Assembly: GCA_964401835.1 (NCBI GenBank)
Contig: CAYNZP010000010.1
Span: forward strand, 9,312-73,311
Reading direction: 5' to 3'
Length of the DNA: 64,000 bases
Source: an uncultured Planctomycetaceae bacterium
GTDB lineage: Bacteria > Planctomycetota > Phycisphaerae > SM23-33
The position numbers and the translations under genes were made by a program. The number at the start of each line of letters is the position of its first letter. Position 1 is the stretch's first letter. Shown here piece after piece: positions 5,167 through 22,370 of this stretch. The notes under the pieces were generated by a model. The model was not told the origin of the DNA, did not search any database, and saw nothing but the letters and a program-made list of their open reading frames with translations.

Positions 5167-5823
5167 ATGAAAAAAAGGCAAAACCAAAAAAGTGATATTG
5201 AACAAAATGAGTACCTTTCAAGCATTTGGGAGTTTGAGAGTGAAGATGAAAAGGTTCAAATGTTAGAGACGATTACTGAGAAAAATTGCGGTGAAAAACT
5301 CCAACTTATCCGAAAGATGTCTGGAATATCTCGGAAGGAACTTGCAGATACTCTTGGAGTCGCAGAATCAACTATTTATCGACTTGAAAAGTCAAATACT
5401 TTGCCCAGTAATGATTTTATGCTTAGATTGAGTGCATTAACAGTTATTGGTGTTTCAAAGTTCAAAAAGTTGAATTCAAAAGATAAAGAAAAAGTCTCTG
5501 ATGCTCTGGCTGCAGCGGGTGGGGCAGCAACAGGTGTAGCTGCATCAATAGCTGCAATTTCATCAGCAGGGACTATAGCTGGGCTTTCGGCTGCGGGGAT
5601 AACATCCGGGCTGGCAGCTATCGGGGGGGGGACGATGCTCGGAGGTGTTGCCGTAGTCGCTTCAATTCCGGTAGCCATGGGTGCAGCTGGGTATGGCCTG
5701 ATAAAGGGTATAAAGGCTATATGTAAAGCTAACAAACTCAGTTGCAAAGAGGTTGATGAGTACTGGGAACTAATCCCTGAAAGTTCTGCTGAGACAAAAG
5801 ACGATACAGATAAATCGGAATAA
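5167..5823 (+). CDS. XRE-family HTH protein with Gly/Ala-rich hydrophobic C-terminal segment
   Basis: GEKLQLIRKMSGISRKELADTLGVAESTIYRLE is an HTH_3-type motif; AAGGAATG...GLSAAGITSGLAAIGGG is a glycine-zipper-like stretch. AAGGAG SD. Confidence 0.8.
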   Translation: MKKRQNQKSDIEQNEYLSSIWEFESEDEKVQMLETITEKNCGEKLQLIRKMSGISRKELADTLGVAESTIYRLEKSNTLPSNDFMLRLSALTVIGVSKFKKLNSKDKEKVSDALAAAGGAATGVAASIAAISSAGTIAGLSAAGITSGLAAIGGGTMLGGVAVVASIPVAMGAAGYGLIKGIKAICKANKLSCKEVDEYWELIPESSAETKDDTDKSE

Positions 5824-5880: not shown

Positions 5881-6438
5881 ATGGCTGGATTACATGAGAA
5901 GCTTCGAATTAATCCTTTAAAGCAAGCTATCAATAAAATTAAAAAGTCGACAAGCAAGCTCGGGTGTTTTTTAGGGATTCATAAATACGAATGGGAAAAT
6001 TGGGATACCCACCCCTGCAAAAAAACAGGTAGGTGTTTGCGATGTAAAAAACACAAGGTTGTGACTAAACATAAATTCGGCGGAATGCATTATGAATCTA
6101 ATGTATCTTGCCGCTTAATCCAAGTCTGTGAAAGGTGTGAAGCAGGAATTAATTGTGGCTATTCACATGCTTGGGGCGATGGCTATTTTGACCCTGTTGA
6201 ACCTTGCCAAATAAAATATACATGTGACCGCTGCGGTTGTACCAGGTACGAAGAAAATCACAACTGGGGAGAATGGGTGTACGAATCGCCCGTTTCTTGT
6301 AAATTGATAAGGTTTTGTCGTCGTTGTGATGAACGGGAAGATGGAGAAGTCGAACATAAATGGGAAGATATTTCAGCGACCACTGCTAGATGCGAACACT
6401 GCGGGGAATATTTCACAATCGAACCAGCTGAAGAATGA
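5881..6438 (+). CDS. Cys/His-rich repeat protein (tandem Zn-ribbon-like units)
   Basis: About five repeats of roughly 31 aa with the pattern H-x-W/F...C-x5-C-x2-C. Confidence 0.7.
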   Translation: MAGLHEKLRINPLKQAINKIKKSTSKLGCFLGIHKYEWENWDTHPCKKTGRCLRCKKHKVVTKHKFGGMHYESNVSCRLIQVCERCEAGINCGYSHAWGDGYFDPVEPCQIKYTCDRCGCTRYEENHNWGEWVYESPVSCKLIRFCRRCDEREDGEVEHKWEDISATTARCEHCGEYFTIEPAEE

Positions 6439-6451
6439 TTTACATGATATT

Positions 6452-7120
6452 TTAACTCGCCGAAAGCTCACACGCAGTGAGATTTAGCATGAAGTCGCAA
6501 TCAGTGATTGGAAAACGTCTCAGGAATTGTGCATACCGGCTGATAAGCAGCCCTGCAGCAACATAGGCTCCGTAGATGGTCATTTTGGCCGTACATGCAC
6601 CTTGCTGGACCTGCTCGGCTGAGAATAACGTGCCTGGATAGTGCTTTCGGCTCTGCTCGTCAGTAGCGGAGAGGATTCTTATTGAATCCCCGCCTTTTAA
6701 GCGTGCATCAAAGAAACCAGCAGCCTTGTCCTTTACAGCTCTCCAAATCAGCTCACGGGTCTGAATACTGTCGACGCAGCAGAAGACTACGTCGTAATCA
6801 TCGTCGCGGCTTCTCGAAAAACGCCTGTTGATGATATTCACGTGACAGTGGCTGTTTATCTCTGCTATATGCCTGGCAAGTGCATCCACTTTGGTCTCGC
6901 ACAGGTCCGTTTCCAAAAAACCCTGACAGGCAAGATTTACCTCATCTACGGTATCGAAGTCGCATATGGCAATGTCCGGACAGCCTATGTGGGCCAGCTG
7001 CCTGACTACCAGTGAGCCGACAGCACCGCAGCCGACGACAATAGGCCTGAACTGCGCTAATCTGTCAGATGGTATGATGTCCTTCTGTCTTATGTATCTA
7101 TTCGATGTAATTGCGTTCAA
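6452..7120 (-). CDS. ThiF/E1-like adenylyltransferase
   Basis: GCGAVGS nucleotide-binding loop, DFDTVDEVNL, CCVDS, DAR; candidate active-site Cys in GACTAK. Confidence 0.9.
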   Translation of the reverse strand: MNAITSNRYIRQKDIIPSDRLAQFRPIVVGCGAVGSLVVRQLAHIGCPDIAICDFDTVDEVNLACQGFLETDLCETKVDALARHIAEINSHCHVNIINRRFSRSRDDDYDVVFCCVDSIQTRELIWRAVKDKAAGFFDARLKGGDSIRILSATDEQSRKHYPGTLFSAEQVQQGACTAKMTIYGAYVAAGLLISRYAQFLRRFPITDCDFMLNLTACELSAS

Positions 7121-8016
7121 AATTGCACCTCCATTTCTGCATTAGCTGCATTGTCAGAATCAACGTAATCTTCCATGTACCAGTTCTCGTCCGGATCGAT
7201 ATTTAGGTCGGCTTCGAGTTCCAGAATCTCCTGCTGAAGTGATTCAAGTTCTGCTTCAAGTTCATCGGTATTCTCGCCGGTTTGTTTTCGCTGCTGGATT
7301 TGCTCGTAAAGCCCATCGAACTGTTCGTAAAGCTCTGACCGCTGGTTCTTAAGCATGGTCTCGTCGTCCAAGCCCTGGCCTTTTTGTTTCTGTTTACAAG
7401 AACCGCCGAGGCCAGAACCAAGGCCGAAACTTTGAAAAACCATTGGCTTAATGTTCTTTTTGTATTCTTCGTGCCAGTCGTTTTGATTGCTGGCCTCGAA
7501 TTGGCCGCTATAGTCAATCTCGACGTCGAGAAGGACCTGGACGATATAACCAGAGCTGATATTGCTTCTCAGGCGTGCATAGTGCTTGCCACCCTGGGCA
7601 AGGATGAACATGACGGCCCAGTCGCATTTGCCGAAGACGCGCTTGAAAGTCTCTTCGTCGGTCATACTGGGGCTGGGCGAATCGCCCGGATGGCTATGGC
7701 ACCAGATGCGGGCAAAGTTTTCGGGCTGTCGGTTATTATCGACGACCTGAGTTTCAAAAAGATCCGCCACGGCTTCATCTTTAAAGCTGACGCTTGCTAC
7801 GGTATTTTCCTGCTCGACGGTCATAAAATCTATGATATGCAGCGGGTCGTCATCAGCGGTGATACCAAAGCCACCGACTTCGGTATTCCCGGCGTCTCTC
7901 ATGAAAAGCAATTTAGCCCACGCCGTAGGTGAAAATCTCAGCACGGGTTTTCTGGGTGCTTTTCCTTTTGAATCTGATTTAGTCAATCTATTCTCAGGTA
8001 ATTGTTTGGTGTTCAT
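7117..8016 (-). CDS. JAB/MPN (JAMM) metallopeptidase, deubiquitinase-like
   Basis: EVGGFG plus HSHPGDSPSPSMTD (HxH-x7-S-x2-D). Start moved to MNTKQ at 8016, which has a GGAG SD. Acidic coiled-coil C-terminal tail. Confidence 0.88.
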   Translation of the reverse strand: MNTKQLPENRLTKSDSKGKAPRKPVLRFSPTAWAKLLFMRDAGNTEVGGFGITADDDPLHIIDFMTVEQENTVASVSFKDEAVADLFETQVVDNNRQPENFARIWCHSHPGDSPSPSMTDEETFKRVFGKCDWAVMFILAQGGKHYARLRSNISSGYIVQVLLDVEIDYSGQFEASNQNDWHEEYKKNIKPMVFQSFGLGSGLGGSCKQKQKGQGLDDETMLKNQRSELYEQFDGLYEQIQQRKQTGENTDELEAELESLQQEILELEADLNIDPDENWYMEDYVDSDNAANAEMEVQF

Positions 8017-8980
8017 CGATATTCTCCAATTCTTCTTTGCAGGAACATGCAAAATCTTCCAGGCACTTCTTGCATATTGGCTGCTCGCAGTCGGGGCATT
8101 TGGTAAGACAGGCATAACAATAACCTTCATCGCAGATGGGACATTTTCGCAGGCAGCCATTGCAAGTTGCCTCTCCGCAATCGCTGCAATAGCTGACGCA
8201 CTGGTCGCAGAAATCGTTATCACATGAATGGCACCAGTAAGTACTCTCACTGTCGCATAGATACCCGCAGTCGTAGCAGGATAAACCGCACCAATCGTCC
8301 AGTGATACGTATGGACTGTCCGGGTTGTAGGTTTCTAAAACCGAGACCATTACCTGAAAGAAGTCACCGATTCTGCCATTAGTGAGGGCAGCTCGGACCA
8401 CCGACAGGCCATCGCCCATACAGACACGTTCATCACTTACATGAGGATGAGTCACAATGGAATTTGAAGCAGCTGGATTGGGATTTAAAGCAACAACCCT
8501 TACTGATTGGTCTTCCGGCTTTTCGAGGTGGCTTATATCCAGCCGTATCTCGAAATCACCAAGGAAGACACCTTCAAGCTCGATAGGGTCGGTAGTGATA
8601 AAAAGTTCGTCAGACTCTCTGTCCCATTGCAGATTGCCAAATTCACGCTCCGCAGCCTTGAGTTCTTCATAGATGTCTCTAACTGAGGGGGTAGATTTGA
8701 GCTGGACAATCTGGTCGATGGTATTCTGCAGGCTGGTGACGTAGTATGGTAAGTCCCTGATGCTTTGCGACATTTTTGAGAGGACTTTTCCACGTGTATC
8801 GTCCCAGCAATGTGCCAGGCAAAGATTGAGTTGCTTCTTTGAGGTTTGCAGATGGCTGGCTTGATCAAGAAGCTGTTGTATCCTGCGAATTAACTGCCTG
8901 TAATCATCCTTATGAAACTCAAACAGCTGGCTGCGAATACGAGCAGCTATCCGAAGGATTTGCTTATCTGGAATGCTCAT
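7994..8980 (-). CDS. Prokaryotic E2-like protein with C-terminal Cys-rich array
   Basis: THPHVSDERVCMG matches the UBC-fold HP(N/H)...C active-site pattern; nine CxxC motifs at the C-terminus. Start MSIPDKQ at 8980 has a GGAG SD. Confidence 0.72.
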   Translation of the reverse strand: MSIPDKQILRIAARIRSQLFEFHKDDYRQLIRRIQQLLDQASHLQTSKKQLNLCLAHCWDDTRGKVLSKMSQSIRDLPYYVTSLQNTIDQIVQLKSTPSVRDIYEELKAAEREFGNLQWDRESDELFITTDPIELEGVFLGDFEIRLDISHLEKPEDQSVRVVALNPNPAASNSIVTHPHVSDERVCMGDGLSVVRAALTNGRIGDFFQVMVSVLETYNPDSPYVSLDDWCGLSCYDCGYLCDSESTYWCHSCDNDFCDQCVSYCSDCGEATCNGCLRKCPICDEGYCYACLTKCPDCEQPICKKCLEDFACSCKEELENIDEHQTIT

Positions 8981-9037
8981 GATATTACTCCAAAAAGCTC
9001 CCGAAAAACTCACGGTAAATCCACAAAATGAAACAGA

Positions 9038-9063
9038 GACTGGCGGATTTTCGGCCACCAGCC
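9038..9063 (-). terminator. Hairpin just downstream of the Ubl gene (weak terminator or stabiliser)
   Basis: Minus-strand GGCTGGTGG/CCGCCAGTC stem with G-U pairs, followed by a T-rich tract. Confidence 0.4.
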
Positions 9064-9089
9064 TCTGCCCCAAGAGTTTAAATGCAGTT

Positions 9090-9314
9090 TTACTTTCGCG
9101 CGCCATCTATTTTCGTGGGAGTTATCGTCACCCGGTCATCTTTTTGCAAGACATAGTCGCTTGATACAGGTTGACGGTTAACCCTGATAAGATAATCGCA
9201 CGTTTCTCCATTAGGAATCTTTTCGGCAAACAGCTGCGACACAGTTGTGCCTCTGTTTACCTCGATATAGTTGGCGAATCCGGCTCCGTCGTTGTTGATG
9301 AAAAGTATACGCAT
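9090..9314 (-). CDS. Ubiquitin-like (ThiS/MoaD beta-grasp) protein
   Basis: 74 aa with IRVN...VLQKDDRVTITPTKIDG-ARK beta-grasp pattern; AAGGAG SD; first gene before E2-JAB-E1. Confidence 0.85.
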   Translation of the reverse strand: MRILFINNDGAGFANYIEVNRGTTVSQLFAEKIPNGETCDYLIRVNRQPVSSDYVLQKDDRVTITPTKIDGARK

Positions 9315-9340
9315 GGTGTTTTCTCCTTATGAAAACGTGA

Positions 9341-9372
9341 TAAAGAAAAGTCAGCGCACACCATATGCGCTG
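9341..9372 (-). terminator. Putative intrinsic terminator/attenuator between DUF2958 and Ubl
   Basis: CAGCGCA (9352-9358) and TGCGCTG (9366-9372) form a stem, followed on the minus strand by ACTTTTCTTT. Confidence 0.5.
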
Positions 9373-9412
9373 CAGTTTTTAAACAATTTGAAATTGATGG
9401 CGGGAATCAGCT

Positions 9413-9718
9413 TTAGCGGAACAGCTTAGGGGCGATTTCTTTGAGGGGTTTGGGCTGCCAGTACAGGTCGCGTTCAATGGGCAGGCCAAGTGGGCCACGG
9501 ATTGATTCCAGCTCTTTTAAACTGAAATACCCAAGCTCTTTTTCAAAGCCGTCTACGAGGCCGAAGAATAAATCCTCGCCATCGAATTCGGTCACATACC
9601 ATGTCCATTGGCTCGTTGGAGTAAAGAACTTGACTATTGCTATGGCATCTCCACCTTTGGATTCCTGAGAATACAGGGGAGGGAGTTTCTTTCTTATTTC
9701 TTGTGTCAGTAGTTTCAT
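9413..9718 (-). CDS. DUF2958-family protein
   Basis: KFFTPTSQWTWYVTE...FFGLVDGFEKELGYFSLKELESIRGPLGLPIERDLY is typical of DUF2958. Start MKLLT has a GGAG SD. Confidence 0.85.
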   Translation of the reverse strand: MKLLTQEIRKKLPPLYSQESKGGDAIAIVKFFTPTSQWTWYVTEFDGEDLFFGLVDGFEKELGYFSLKELESIRGPLGLPIERDLYWQPKPLKEIAPKLFR

Positions 9719-9782
9719 TTGTTTTATCTCCACAAACAGGTATGGGAATTGTTCTCTAAGAATCCGACCGATTGGAACAGCT

Positions 9783-10367
9783 TCATTGCTGGCCATTGGT
9801 CAGGTCCTTGAGCTGATCAATCAACTTAGATGCATCAGAAAGACTCAGCTCGGAAGGGTTGCAGTCGCATCTGGTCTGGACTTCCTGCTCGGCCTCAAGG
9901 CCCAGCCTCTCGCAAATGGCTTTGACAGCACGCAATTGGGCCTCAGTCGCAGGTCGATTTGCTCCATTTGAGCTATTGGTAAGGCCAAGTTCTTCATCTA
10001 CAGCCATTCGGGCCATAGAAAAGAGCTTTTTGATACGTTCGTGCAGCAATTCGGCATCTTCAGCGGCCGAGCTTTCCAATTCCATCTCCACATTTACGGC
10101 TGCACCGCGCGAGCCGTAGTTGGGTTGGCCTATTTTGCGGTTTATCCCGCAGTTCAATTTAATCATGGCAGTATCTCCTTGTGATTCAAAAGGTGGGGGC
10201 TTATCGCCAATAAACACAGCGGCCAATTCGTCTTTGATCTTTTCACCTTCATCATTCGTATTGCTTTTTTGGGAATTTGGGCCTTTATGATTCAATGGCC
10301 GCTTCGCCTGGAAAGTGTTCCAAGCCCTTCTTGCAAAATAAGGATTGTGCATTGATTGATAGCGCAT
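9783..10367 (-). CDS. Hypothetical protein (strong internal start MIKLNCG at 10166)
   Basis: SD-like sequences precede both 10367 and 10166; C-terminal RPATEAQLRAV...LSLSDASKLIDQLK segment of the kind seen in mobile-element proteins. Confidence 0.7.
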   Translation of the reverse strand: MRYQSMHNPYFARRAWNTFQAKRPLNHKGPNSQKSNTNDEGEKIKDELAAVFIGDKPPPFESQGDTAMIKLNCGINRKIGQPNYGSRGAAVNVEMELESSAAEDAELLHERIKKLFSMARMAVDEELGLTNSSNGANRPATEAQLRAVKAICERLGLEAEQEVQTRCDCNPSELSLSDASKLIDQLKDLTNGQQ

Positions 10368-20993: not shown

Positions 20994-22370
20994 ATGGCTA
21001 GGATTCATATTGATAAGAGGACCAAAAAGCCGACGCGATCTATTCGCTTTGACTTGAACGGAAAAGAACACGAAATCAGGTTTGGAAAAGTAACACAAAA
21101 ACAGGCAGAAAGTGCTCGGTTATTTATTGAAGATCTGATTAGCTCTAAATCAACAGGCAGTTCACCGCGTCCTGCAACTCAGGGATGGATATCGAACTTA
21201 CCCGACAAAATCCGCAAGAGAGTTGAAAGGGCAGGACTGATTGGGCCTCAGGAACATAAGGAATCGCCTTTTTTGGTTGATTGGGTCCAGAAATATATAA
21301 ACAGTCGAACAGATATAAAACCCAGTACTTTGAGCGGGTTTAAACAGGTTCATAGGAATTTGCATCAATTTTTCGGTGATACAAGACGATTGGATGATAT
21401 TTCTCCAAGCGATGCTGAGGATTTTAAGATATTTCTCAAGGAGGAAGGCTTGGCCGAAGCAACCATTCGCAGGAGATGCAGACGGGCTAAGCAATTATTC
21501 CGTAAAGCCGAAAGAATGAAACTGATAACTGAAAACCCCTTCATAGATATTAAGTGCGGGGATATTGCTAATGAGGCACGGAGATATTTCGTCAGCGAGG
21601 AAGAAATGGAGGCGGTGCTATCAGCCTGTCCCGATGTCCAATGGAAGATGATATTCGCATTGGCTCGATATGGAGGTTTGCGTACCCCTTCGGAAACTTT
21701 AAAACTCCGTTGGAAGGACATTAATTGGAACACAAAGCGGTTTATCGTTAGAAGCCCAAAGACGGAAGGGCATGGCAAGCCTAGCCGGAGAGTGCCGTTA
21801 TTCCCGAAGCTGCATGAAATTCTGCTTGAAGGCTTTGAACAGGCTCAAGAGGGGGACGAGCACGTCATAACCCGGTATAGCGACTCTAGGGCGAATCTAA
21901 GGACACAGGCCCACCGTATTATCAGGCGTGCAGGGCTTGAGCCTTGGCAGAAAGTATTTCAGAATTGCCGGTCGAGTTGTGAGACAGAACTGATGGAAAA
22001 TCCATTATTCCCAATTCAGGCGGTGGTCGCTTGGCTCGGTAATACTCCATCGGTAGCTCTCAAACATTATTTACAGGTTCGAGAAGAGCACTATCAAAAG
22101 GCGGTGGAAAAATGTCCCCCAAATACACCCCCTGAACACAGCGGAATAGCCCAGAATAATGCGGAACGCCAAGACGGTAGAAATCATAAAGCCTTGCCAT
22201 TCCGTTCTGTTCCTAAGTATTCACAAATAAAGGACTTACGGGACTCCCCGAGTAGGACTCGAACCTACAACCTAGCGGTTAACAGCCGCTCGCTCTACCA
22301 ATTGAGCTATCGGGGAAGATTATTTTGCAGAATACAGCAAACGCTACCAGAGGCTGCAAAAACTCAGTAA
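20994..22370 (+). CDS. Tyrosine recombinase / integrase
   Basis: SAM-like core-binding region; GGLRTPSE (R), SPKTE (K), FQNCR, WLGNT, KHY (Y). The 3' end reads through tRNA-Asn in antisense. Confidence 0.92.
   Translation: MARIHIDKRTKKPTRSIRFDLNGKEHEIRFGKVTQKQAESARLFIEDLISSKSTGSSPRPATQGWISNLPDKIRKRVERAGLIGPQEHKESPFLVDWVQKYINSRTDIKPSTLSGFKQVHRNLHQFFGDTRRLDDISPSDAEDFKIFLKEEGLAEATIRRRCRRAKQLFRKAERMKLITENPFIDIKCGDIANEARRYFVSEEEMEAVLSACPDVQWKMIFALARYGGLRTPSETLKLRWKDINWNTKRFIVRSPKTEGHGKPSRRVPLFPKLHEILLEGFEQAQEGDEHVITRYSDSRANLRTQAHRIIRRAGLEPWQKVFQNCRSSCETELMENPLFPIQAVVAWLGNTPSVALKHYLQVREEHYQKAVEKCPPNTPPEHSGIAQNNAERQDGRNHKALPFRSVPKYSQIKDLRDSPSRTRTYNLAVNSRSLYQLSYRGRLFCRIQQTLPEAAKTQ
22244..22316 (-). 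tRNA. tRNA-Asn (GTT)
   Basis: Reverse complement TCCCCGATAGCTCAATTGGTAGAGCGAGCGGCT-GTT-AACCGCTAGGTTGTAGGTTCGAGTCCTACTCGGGGAG folds as a cloverleaf; CCA not encoded. Confidence 0.96.

Follow-up and report, generated by a model that had tools for sequence, protein, structure and literature searches.

A large planctomycete family of four-gene operons for probable ubiquitin-like tagging with a divergent E2 joined to a putative zinc-finger array

Within a 64,000-nucleotide (nt) stretch of contig CAYNZP010000010.1 from an uncultured Planctomycetaceae bacterium, hereafter the window, an operon at 6452–9314 on the minus strand encodes a ubiquitin-like protein (Ubl), a ubiquitin-conjugating-type enzyme (E2), a JAB/JAMM metallopeptidase and a ubiquitin-activating-type enzyme (E1), in that order, and is a complete four-gene set, probably for Ubl tagging, from a large, unnamed family. 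The Ubl gene (9090–9314) specifies 74 amino acids (aa) of ThiS-like sequence ending in ...TPTKIDG-ARK and is preceded by the ribosome-binding site AGGAGA; the E2-like gene (7994–8980, 328 aa) joins a core of the ubiquitin-conjugating (UBC) fold to a putative zinc-finger array; the peptidase gene (7117–8016, 299 aa) matches Prok-JAB; and the E1 gene (6452–7120, 222 aa), which opens with a TTG start, is of the ThiF type (PF00899). An earlier prediction made from this DNA (the original prediction) described four consecutive minus-strand genes with intact catalytic motifs, the last three of them overlapping, and this description is borne out: the coordinates hold, the E2 and JAB genes share 23 nt and the JAB and E1 genes 2 nt, and the catalytic residues, which we verified codon by codon, are conserved across the family. 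The predicted HPHV-x5-C motif of the E2 is found as H178-P-H-V ... C187, the JAMM motif as HSH-x7-S-x2-D with the upstream Glu present, and the ThiF-type protein has a GxGxxG motif together with its candidate Cys, C176, which is invariant in the family. The base composition is unremarkable.

The Ubl and E2 genes are separated by a spacer of 109 nt. In a consensus scan, the spacer holds a terminator-like hairpin on the minus strand (9029–9072), with 18 pairs and then a T-run, that could allow a surplus of Ubl relative to the enzymes; taken whole, the region shows no excess of such sites over shuffled sequence in that scan. The scan also marks a second palindrome at 9352–9372, between the Ubl gene and a DUF2958 gene upstream on the same strand (9413–9796, 127 aa; PF11171, E = 1.1e-19). 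A longer, 370-aa open reading frame (ORF) for the E2, with its start at 9106, was rejected: its first 42 residues are not conserved, and 35 homologues in the alignment start at the 328-aa form.

The original prediction hinged on the 328-aa protein having a UBC fold, and AlphaFold modelling of the core, Foldseek and hhalign agree that it does. The full-length AlphaFold2 model, built with an alignment, has a predicted local distance difference test score (pLDDT) of 91.2 and consists of three parts: a helical hairpin (residues 5–93), an alpha/beta core (100–216) and a beta-rich, Cys-studded tail. Modelled separately, the core (residues 95–232; 8285–8698, minus strand) reaches a pLDDT of 88.7 and a predicted template-modelling score of 0.83. 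When this core model is compared with the Protein Data Bank (PDB) by Foldseek, 43 of 43 rows among the matches listed are E2, UEV, RWD or UFC1 chains, with probabilities of up to 0.99 and template-modelling (TM) scores of 0.5–0.58; the whole E2 model also finds UBC E2s among its top matches, again with weak E-values. Because of these weak E-values, we ran hhalign as an independent test, setting a 42-sequence profile of the E2 core against 23 aligned UQ_con-type E2s of the same phylum. The two profiles align over 89 columns with a probability of 91% and E = 1.2e-6; HPH falls on HPN, C187 on the catalytic Cys of the E2s and YNPxSPY on YNxKSPL. Both the alpha/beta UBC fold, in which an N-terminal helix leads into a four-strand meander and on into helices, and an HPN-type motif followed by a Cys are present.

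The candidate active site is strictly conserved. T177, H178, P179, H180, V181, C187 and G189 are invariant in an alignment of 36 E2 sequences, and C187 (8420–8422), the catalytic candidate downstream of H178-P-H180 (8441–8449), is a Cys in 81 of 81 family members. Existing sequence models pass over the protein: it has no match in Pfam, NCBIfam, PADLOC or PHROGs, the Pfam E2 families (UQ_con and Prok-E2_A to Prok-E2_E) give no match to the window E2 at E ≤ 10 or to the 42 E2-core sequences at E ≤ 1, and the family profile finds no E2 of any kind among solved proteins at E ≤ 10. Of 401 genomes sampled from the phylum, 53 encode UQ_con-type E2s; the window's own genome has none. From these comparisons of sequence and predicted fold, we conclude that the E2-like protein is a real, very divergent E2 of the classical type.

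The core is flanked by two further parts. Residues 1–94 (8699–8980, minus strand) form an antiparallel helical hairpin, with helices 5–57 and 60–93 predicted by AlphaFold2 at pLDDT above 90, and residues 233–313 (8042–8284, minus strand) form a Cys array of nine CxxC pairs plus C312. The mean frequency of the top residue is 0.35 in the hairpin, the most variable part of the E2, 0.62 in the core and 0.42 at the array positions between the Cys residues. The 19 ligand Cys residues of the array are each kept in 77–81 of 80–81 sequences and would suffice for about five Cys4 zinc sites of B-box/RING-like type, metal binding being predicted from the ligand pattern. Against PDB sequences, the family profile matches the Midline-1 B-box (E = 5e-4) and, more weakly, fingers of TFIIH p44, TRIM21, TRIM32 and RNF213; a Foldseek comparison of the full-length model with viral structures gives short, low-TM matches only, probably to zinc fingers. 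The number of repeats varies, with an extra unit in two members (P0013 and P0030) and repeated matches in viral ones. Arrays of this kind also occur on other E2s: four loci of the same phylum (L118–L121; for example L120, 703–2235) encode UQ_con-type E2s with the site FHPNI...C and a C-terminal CxxC array, which the finger part of the studied family's model recognises with domain E-values of 2e-6 to 6e-8. Fusion of an E2 to an array is therefore a wider theme in the phylum, extending beyond the studied family, and the array may choose the targets of the E2.

The Ubl had been described as a beta-grasp protein whose Gly is masked; its ThiS-like sequence fits the first statement, and the second is correct, as a rule of the whole family. 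The window Ubl matches ThiS (PF02597) with E = 0.006, and 29 of 36 family members do so at E ≤ 0.01, the best with 3.3e-6; searched against solved structures, the Ubl profile returns no informative relative, with designed proteins first and then MoaD at E = 0.28. In the window, the conserved Gly71 is followed by Ala72 and a two-residue tail. The Gly is kept in 72 of 72 Ubl sequences, and every one of them continues past it: the next residue is Ala in 71/72, none of the 72 ends at Gly and 5 end at Gly-Ala. The tail after the Gly measures 1–13 residues in 68 of the 72, 31 and 52 residues in two, and 74–75 in two tandem forms. The latter, found in 2 of 71 relatives, are head-to-tail di-Ubls (L001, 2332–2769, 146 aa; L012, 5256–5690, 145 aa) with the junctions ...KIEGA/ARLLF... 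and ...KIDGA/AKVLF..., an arrangement that resembles polyubiquitin and would require a processing protease. As Ala follows the Gly almost invariably, the mature end of the Ubl could be either Gly or Gly-Ala.

The peptidase has a catalytic domain at approximately residues 25–190, with the JAMM motif H107-S-H109...S117..D120 (7657–7698, minus strand) and E46. Its match to Prok-JAB (E = 4e-5) lies slightly under the Pfam cut-off, the CBASS-type JAB models of PADLOC match with E about 3e-5, and the closest solved sequences are the Rpn11-like 6fjv (E = 3.6e-4) and then Rpn11. Residues E46, H107, H109, S117 and D120, as well as C176 of the E1, are invariant or at least 97% conserved (69–75 sequences). 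The last ~110 residues form an acidic, coiled-coil-like tail. The JAB C-termini of the window and of related loci carry a short conserved acidic-aromatic motif after a variable linker, for example ...DLWDExEV..., with ...ENWYMEDYV... in the window (7117–7180); this motif may be a docking peptide.

The E1 is a single ThiF-type adenylation domain (PF00899, E = 8.4e-25) with no rhodanese domain, UFD domain or CxxC zinc site. Its conserved residues (36–69 sequences) comprise R8/R11/Q12, forming the Arg finger, the nucleotide-binding motif G30-x-G-x-x-G35 (7016–7033, minus strand), D54/D56, D117 and C176 (6593–6595, minus strand), the sole invariant Cys. C176 lies 59 residues past D117, a spacing that we take to equal that to the crossover-loop Cys of E. 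coli ThiF and MoeB. Among solved proteins, the E1 is nearest in sequence to UBA7, UBA6, ThiF, UBA5 and MoeB, matched over the nucleotide-binding half only (residues 17–125). In NCBIfam it scores best against models of ThiF and MoeB but stays far under the cut-off of each, and there is a weak match to the CBASS 'E1-E2' model of PADLOC.

The family to which the operon belongs is large. A word-indexed search gave 297 relatives of the E2, the nearest 46% identical, and those with names are all 'hypothetical protein' from Planctomycetota. With a profile of the E2 core, the count rises to 2,441 clusters at 50% identity, 790 of them at E ≤ 1e-30, and in nearly all of the clusters the core occupies about residues 95–231 of proteins of ~340–360 aa; a protein atlas assigns the window E2 to a cluster without a name, whose 2,546 members are for the most part planctomycete. 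Among 401 sampled genomes of the phylum, 15 contain the E2 core at E ≤ 1e-10, 12 of these within one family, with 1–6 matches each. To compare operons, one genome per species was scanned, giving 99 E2 relatives, of which 80 loci were kept; 73 of these are labelled planctomycete and the rest archaeon (2), uncultured bacterium (2), Actinomycetes, SAR324 and Victivallales. Searches of the 80 loci with the window proteins found the JAB in 75, the Ubl in 72 and the E1 in 69, and where there was room for the whole operon, all four genes stand on one strand in the order Ubl-E2-JAB-E1 in 58 of 60 loci (exceptions, L035 and L059). We found no paper on the operon family or on the function of DUF2958; Burroughs et al. 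2011/2008 and the operon tables for Bil and Bub may list the family. Several loci carry, 3′ of the E1 gene, a protein of ~220 aa that belongs to no known family (NSWNRSTSYAN, GINGRSGGY and two CxxC pairs). It is directly downstream of E1 in L024, L032, L033, L038, L046, L049, L050, L062 and L078, and about 5.6 kb downstream in L061.

In the window, the operon continues a same-strand series that comprises, upstream, the DUF2958 gene, a run of genes of no known function and one for a DnaJ-like protein, and it is followed downstream by a SNF2 helicase and a RuvB-like ATPase. At 8–13 kb upstream lie genes for a DUF3987 protein, a radical-SAM protein and a tyrosine integrase (20994–22370, plus strand), whose ORF runs into a tRNA-Asn gene on the opposite strand (22241–22317, minus strand), as expected for an attachment site. 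The original prediction placed the operon on an integrative element. The integrase at tRNA-Asn, 12 kb away, and the DUF3987 and SNF2/RuvB-like flanks bear this placement out only in part, as no att repeat was found: the 3′ end of tRNA-Asn has no second copy in the window, contig or genome, and a search for att repeats found no words of at least 12 nt shared with the contig left of the integrase. Two plus-strand genes converge on E1: one at 5881–6438 encodes a protein of 185 aa that is rich in repeated Cys pairs and has neither a family match nor a homologue in the 80 loci, and one at 5167–5823 encodes a helix–turn–helix protein, Gly/Ala-rich in its C-terminal half, with matches to the PADLOC models BnzA/RmrA at E 1e-10 to 1e-9.

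Comparison within the genome points to a smaller mobile unit. The window's genome, of 2.5 Mb in 23 contigs, has three copies of the DUF2958-Ubl-E2-JAB-E1 set, the other two being on contig C4 (9152–12322, L084) and contig C7 (4688–7892, L085). These are 43–60% identical to the window in the four operon proteins and 69–70% identical in DUF2958. Compared with each other, the C4 and C7 copies have 83.5% DNA identity over 3.2 kb that run exactly from DUF2958 to the E1 stop, and beyond the cassette the similarity is confined to two short upstream pieces, in otherwise unrelated surroundings. Since the identity is limited to the cassette, what moves is apparently the cassette, frequently accompanied by DUF2958, and not this particular integrative element. 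At C4, the neighbours are two unknown genes just upstream and otherwise a glycosyl hydrolase, LarA, an AraC-type regulator and alanine racemase. Across the family, 53 loci extend at least 3 kb upstream, and 29 of these have a DUF2958 homologue on the operon's strand within that distance. Genes that recur nearby in planctomycete loci encode HerA/TraG-like ATPases, Orc/Cdc6-like ATPases, a protein with a weak ArdC-N match and families of small modular proteins.

Relatives also occur on six contigs of the IMG/VR collection. Three of these (L087–L089) encode Ubl, E2, JAB and E1 in order, L086 has E2, JAB and E1 at the contig end, and L090 and L091 contain distant relatives. L087 comes from a 191-kb record that has terminal repeats and a CheckV completeness of 100%, and the operon's neighbours in it are of phage type: a NinI-like phosphatase, an HNH endonuclease, a DprA-like protein, an RNA ligase and TnpB. 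The viral status of these contigs rests on the collection's own classing and on the phage-like neighbours in L087; Terminase_6N and Phage_capsid gave no match in the five viral records searched, and the Ubl, E2, JAB and DUF2958 proteins have no match in PHROGs. L087 also has an extra ORF of 284 aa between Ubl and E2 (8910–9764), with a weak match to the E2 model (E = 8e-4); it may encode a second, degenerate E2-like protein.

Taken together, these features make it probable, in our judgement, that the operon encodes a thioester cascade for Ubl conjugation, carried on a small mobile cassette and engaged in conflicts between mobile elements and their hosts. The original prediction preferred protein conjugation to sulfur transfer, noting that no thiamine or molybdenum cofactor (Moco) genes lie nearby. 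The family-wide data also favour conjugation, because the E2 Cys is invariant, the Gly is always masked, di-Ubls exist, and neither rhodanese nor thiamine or Moco genes are present in any neighbourhood scanned. In the mechanism that we propose, the JAMM peptidase would trim the Ubl precursor at ...KI(D/E)-G-A, removing the variable tail and splitting tandem Ubls. The ThiF-type E1 would then adenylate the freed C-terminus and hold the Ubl as a thioester on C176, from which it would move to C187 of the UBC-type E2, beside the HPH motif. The E2 hairpin and the B-box/RING-like array would select targets, and the Ubl would be placed on target lysines, so that the E2 would have a built-in E3 (ubiquitin-ligase) function with no separate E3. 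The JAMM peptidase may also take the tag off again. The trimming step and the direct choice of targets have counterparts in described systems: trimming of a pro-Ubl by a JAMM peptidase prior to E1 activation is reported for Type II Bil (PMC10557695, in excerpt), removal of a pro-Ubl tail by a JAMM enzyme prior to activation for Candidatus Caldiarchaeum subterraneum (PMC5654768, in excerpt), and Bil E2s have been proposed to select targets directly, without an E3 (PMC11601596, in excerpt).

As to what the tagging is for, a conflict system exchanged by mobile elements and phages is the most likely role, and by analogy with Bil, which joins its Ubl to a phage protein and thereby confers phage resistance, we favour the tagging of proteins of invading phages or rival elements. 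The role is nevertheless the weakest part of this interpretation, since the context agrees almost equally well with a function in the service of the element or phage. Several observations weigh against the interpretation as a whole. The Foldseek E-values for the E2 core are weak, the best being 0.024 and none reaching 0.001 or lower; the window Ubl attains its ThiS match only under the Pfam cut-off; and neither the Ubl nor the E2 is matched by any PADLOC model. The cleavage point of the Ubl and the residue that is activated are uncertain, given the Ala after Gly in 71 of 72 sequences. The B-box/RING likeness of the array comes from a match of a Cys-rich profile at E = 5e-4, which is a lead and no proof. 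Finally, DUF2958 is present at only about 55–60% of loci, and the cassette sits beside element-backbone genes, a position that fits an element-serving function as well as defence.

The strongest competitor keeps the same cascade and changes its beneficiary: it would serve the mobile element or phage, tagging host or element proteins for establishment, replication, transfer or counter-defence, a role suspected also for PRTRC-type cassettes on plasmids and integrative and conjugative elements (ICEs). Genome context speaks for this idea. The operon forms one co-directional string with DUF2958 and the DnaJ-like gene, flanked by SNF2/RuvB-like genes on one side and DUF3987 and the integrase on the other; relatives lie near the HerA/TraG-like, Orc/Cdc6-like, weak ArdC-N and small modular proteins; and the terminal-repeat contig of 191 kb carries the full operon among phage-type neighbours. 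However, the C4 copy is a bare cassette among metabolic genes, away from any element backbone; a genome with several divergent copies is what one would sooner expect of a defence or addiction module; and many true defence systems are likewise carried by elements and phages. We regard an element-serving function as rather unlikely, and a conflict cascade directed at invaders or rivals as the better account.

Far less credible is a sulfur-carrier pathway, in which a JAMM-trimmed, E1-adenylated Ubl would be made into a thiocarboxylate for a cofactor, tRNA or metabolite. JAMM-trimmed sulfur carriers do exist, namely QbsE/QbsD of the QbsCDE set in quinolobactin synthesis and CysO/Mec in cysteine synthesis, and a masked Gly, a JAB and an E1 do not on their own prove conjugation. 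The only family match of the Ubl is ThiS/MoaD, and the E1 finds ThiF/MoeB best in NCBIfam. Against such a pathway, every complete locus has a UBC-type E2 with a His...Cys site, the E1 has no rhodanese domain, and no sulfurtransferase or biosynthetic genes accompany the operon in the scanned neighbourhoods, just as thiamine and Moco genes are absent there; the Ubl terminus has one Gly with Ala after it and no Gly-Gly, and the operon travels as a mobile cassette, in several copies per genome and on phage contigs. ThiS/MoaD sulfur carriers, by comparison, have a C-terminal Gly-Gly and come with a sulfurtransferase or rhodanese and biosynthetic genes, none of which is found in the studied operon.

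A complex prediction with two E1 chains, Ubl residues 1–72 and the full E2 as the scored partner gave 0.09 and 0.27 against a mark of 0.32, scores obtained without controls that we use neither for nor against binding. That the E2-like protein might be a UEV/RWD-like adaptor or zinc-finger scaffold, with the E1 conjugating the Ubl directly or merely adenylating it, is highly improbable: UEV and RWD chains do appear among the Foldseek matches, and the complex prediction gave no interface model that would back transfer from E1 to E2, but HPH and C187 are invariant (81/81 for the Cys) and are paired in the profile alignment with HPN and Cys of active E2s, whereas inactive UEV/RWD domains, including RWD-like bacterial domains (PMC1779556, in excerpt), have no such Cys.

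A bolder version of the conjugation reading is possible, though less likely than not. The family might represent a further major, unstudied lineage of bacterial ubiquitination that resembles the eukaryotic toolkit more than Bil, Bub or CBASS do. It would be built around a one-chain, TRIM-like hybrid of E2 and E3, in which an E2 with the classical HPx-Cys site is covalently linked to a coiled-coil hairpin and a B-box/RING-like zinc-finger array. As a joint proposal, it would include an Rpn11-like protease, pro- and poly-Ubl precursors, and shuttling among Planctomycetota by integrative elements and large phages, and the choice of invader or host proteins for tagging would depend on the variable surfaces of fingers and hairpin.

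Ubl conjugation in bacteria has been demonstrated experimentally only recently, in CBASS, Bil and Bub, and each of these systems brought a new mode of target choice and a link to eukaryotic immunity. The family described here is large (2,441 clusters), with an E2 that Pfam, NCBIfam and PADLOC do not recognise. Its compact set of parts, a 222-aa E1, a 74-aa Ubl and an E2 with apparently E3-like fingers, makes it an attractive minimal model for the evolution of E2-RING/B-box combinations. The Gly-Ala end and the di-Ubl genes pose a biochemical question, namely which residue of the Ubl is activated, and the spread on elements and phages together with the divergent copies suggests a role in genetic conflict that can be tested directly.

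The original prediction also called for comparison with Bil, Bub and PRTRC. The gene order of Bil is indeed shared, and the defining features of Bil, Bub and PRTRC, as well as those of CBASS, are not. CBASS Type II, with Cap2 and Cap3, has a fused E2-E1 protein and a CD-NTase as substrate. In the studied operon E1 and E2 are separate genes, no CD-NTase was found among the window ORFs scanned, and the score against the NCBIfam Cap3 model is 17.4 bits for a cut-off of 200; what the two have in common is a conflict chemistry of E1, E2 and JAB. PRTRC systems (ParB-related, ThiF-related) carry a Ubl/E1/E2/JAB-type set on plasmids and ICEs, and their targets are unknown. The studied E1 scores 38.7 bits against the PRTRC ThiF model TIGR03736, for a cut-off of 144.75, and neither the other PRTRC models nor ParB had a match at E ≤ 0.01 among the ten proteins scanned. 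Bub uses a DUF6527 serine protease with an E1 and E2 that have no catalytic Cys and is described as working through oxyesters (PMC11601596, in excerpt). In the studied operon, by contrast, C176 and C187 are invariant, and no DUF6527 protease was found among the window ORFs scanned. None of the classes 6a–6e of Iyer et al. 2006, as they appear in excerpts of that work (PMC1779556), has the make-up of the studied operon.

In its parts, the operon looks closest to the ubiquitin operons of Caldiarchaeum type, which consist of ubiquitin, E1, a UQ_con E2, a small RING protein and an Rpn11-like JAMM protein. The likeness lies in the homology of the E2 core to UQ_con E2s of the same phylum, with active sites aligned, in the Rpn11-like JAB and in a zinc-finger component beside the E2. 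There are also clear differences: ubiquitin of this type ends in GG and the RING protein is separate, whereas the studied Ubl is ThiS-like with a G-A end and the fingers are fused to the E2; the studied E2 has no match to the UQ_con model, unlike Caldiarchaeum-type E2s; and the UQ_con loci examined have the order E1-E2-JAB, as opposed to Ubl-E2-JAB-E1. Eukaryote-like ubiquitin operons are known from Caldiarchaeum, from some Actinobacteria and Acidobacteria and, according to a review, from some Planctomycetes (PMC4197634, in excerpt, citing Burroughs et al. 2011).

In its layout, the operon follows Bil, with its order of Ubl, E2, JAB deubiquitinase and E1 (PMC10557695 and PMC11601603, in excerpt). 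Both have separate, unfused genes and no separate E3, and both show varied Ubl architecture that includes multi-beta-grasp forms; processing of the Ubl by the JAB ahead of activation is established for Type II Bil and would be expected by inference for the studied operon. As opposed to Type II Bil, with its multidomain E1 (an inactive and an active adenylation domain and a CYS domain) and CEHH-type E2, the studied operon has an E1 of a single 222-aa adenylation domain and an E2 with an HPH...C site. Type I Bil has an ISG15-like Ubl of two beta-grasp domains, whereas the studied Ubl is a single ThiS-like domain of 74 aa, tandem in only 2 of 71 relatives. Beyond what Bil E2s offer, the studied E2 adds an N-terminal hairpin and a fused zinc-finger array to a classical HPx...Cys site. 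Defining features, as judged from the genes, place the studied operon outside Bil, Bub, CBASS and PRTRC, and its best reading is that of a system with a layout like that of Bil and with components nearer to eukaryote-like E2s and Rpn11.

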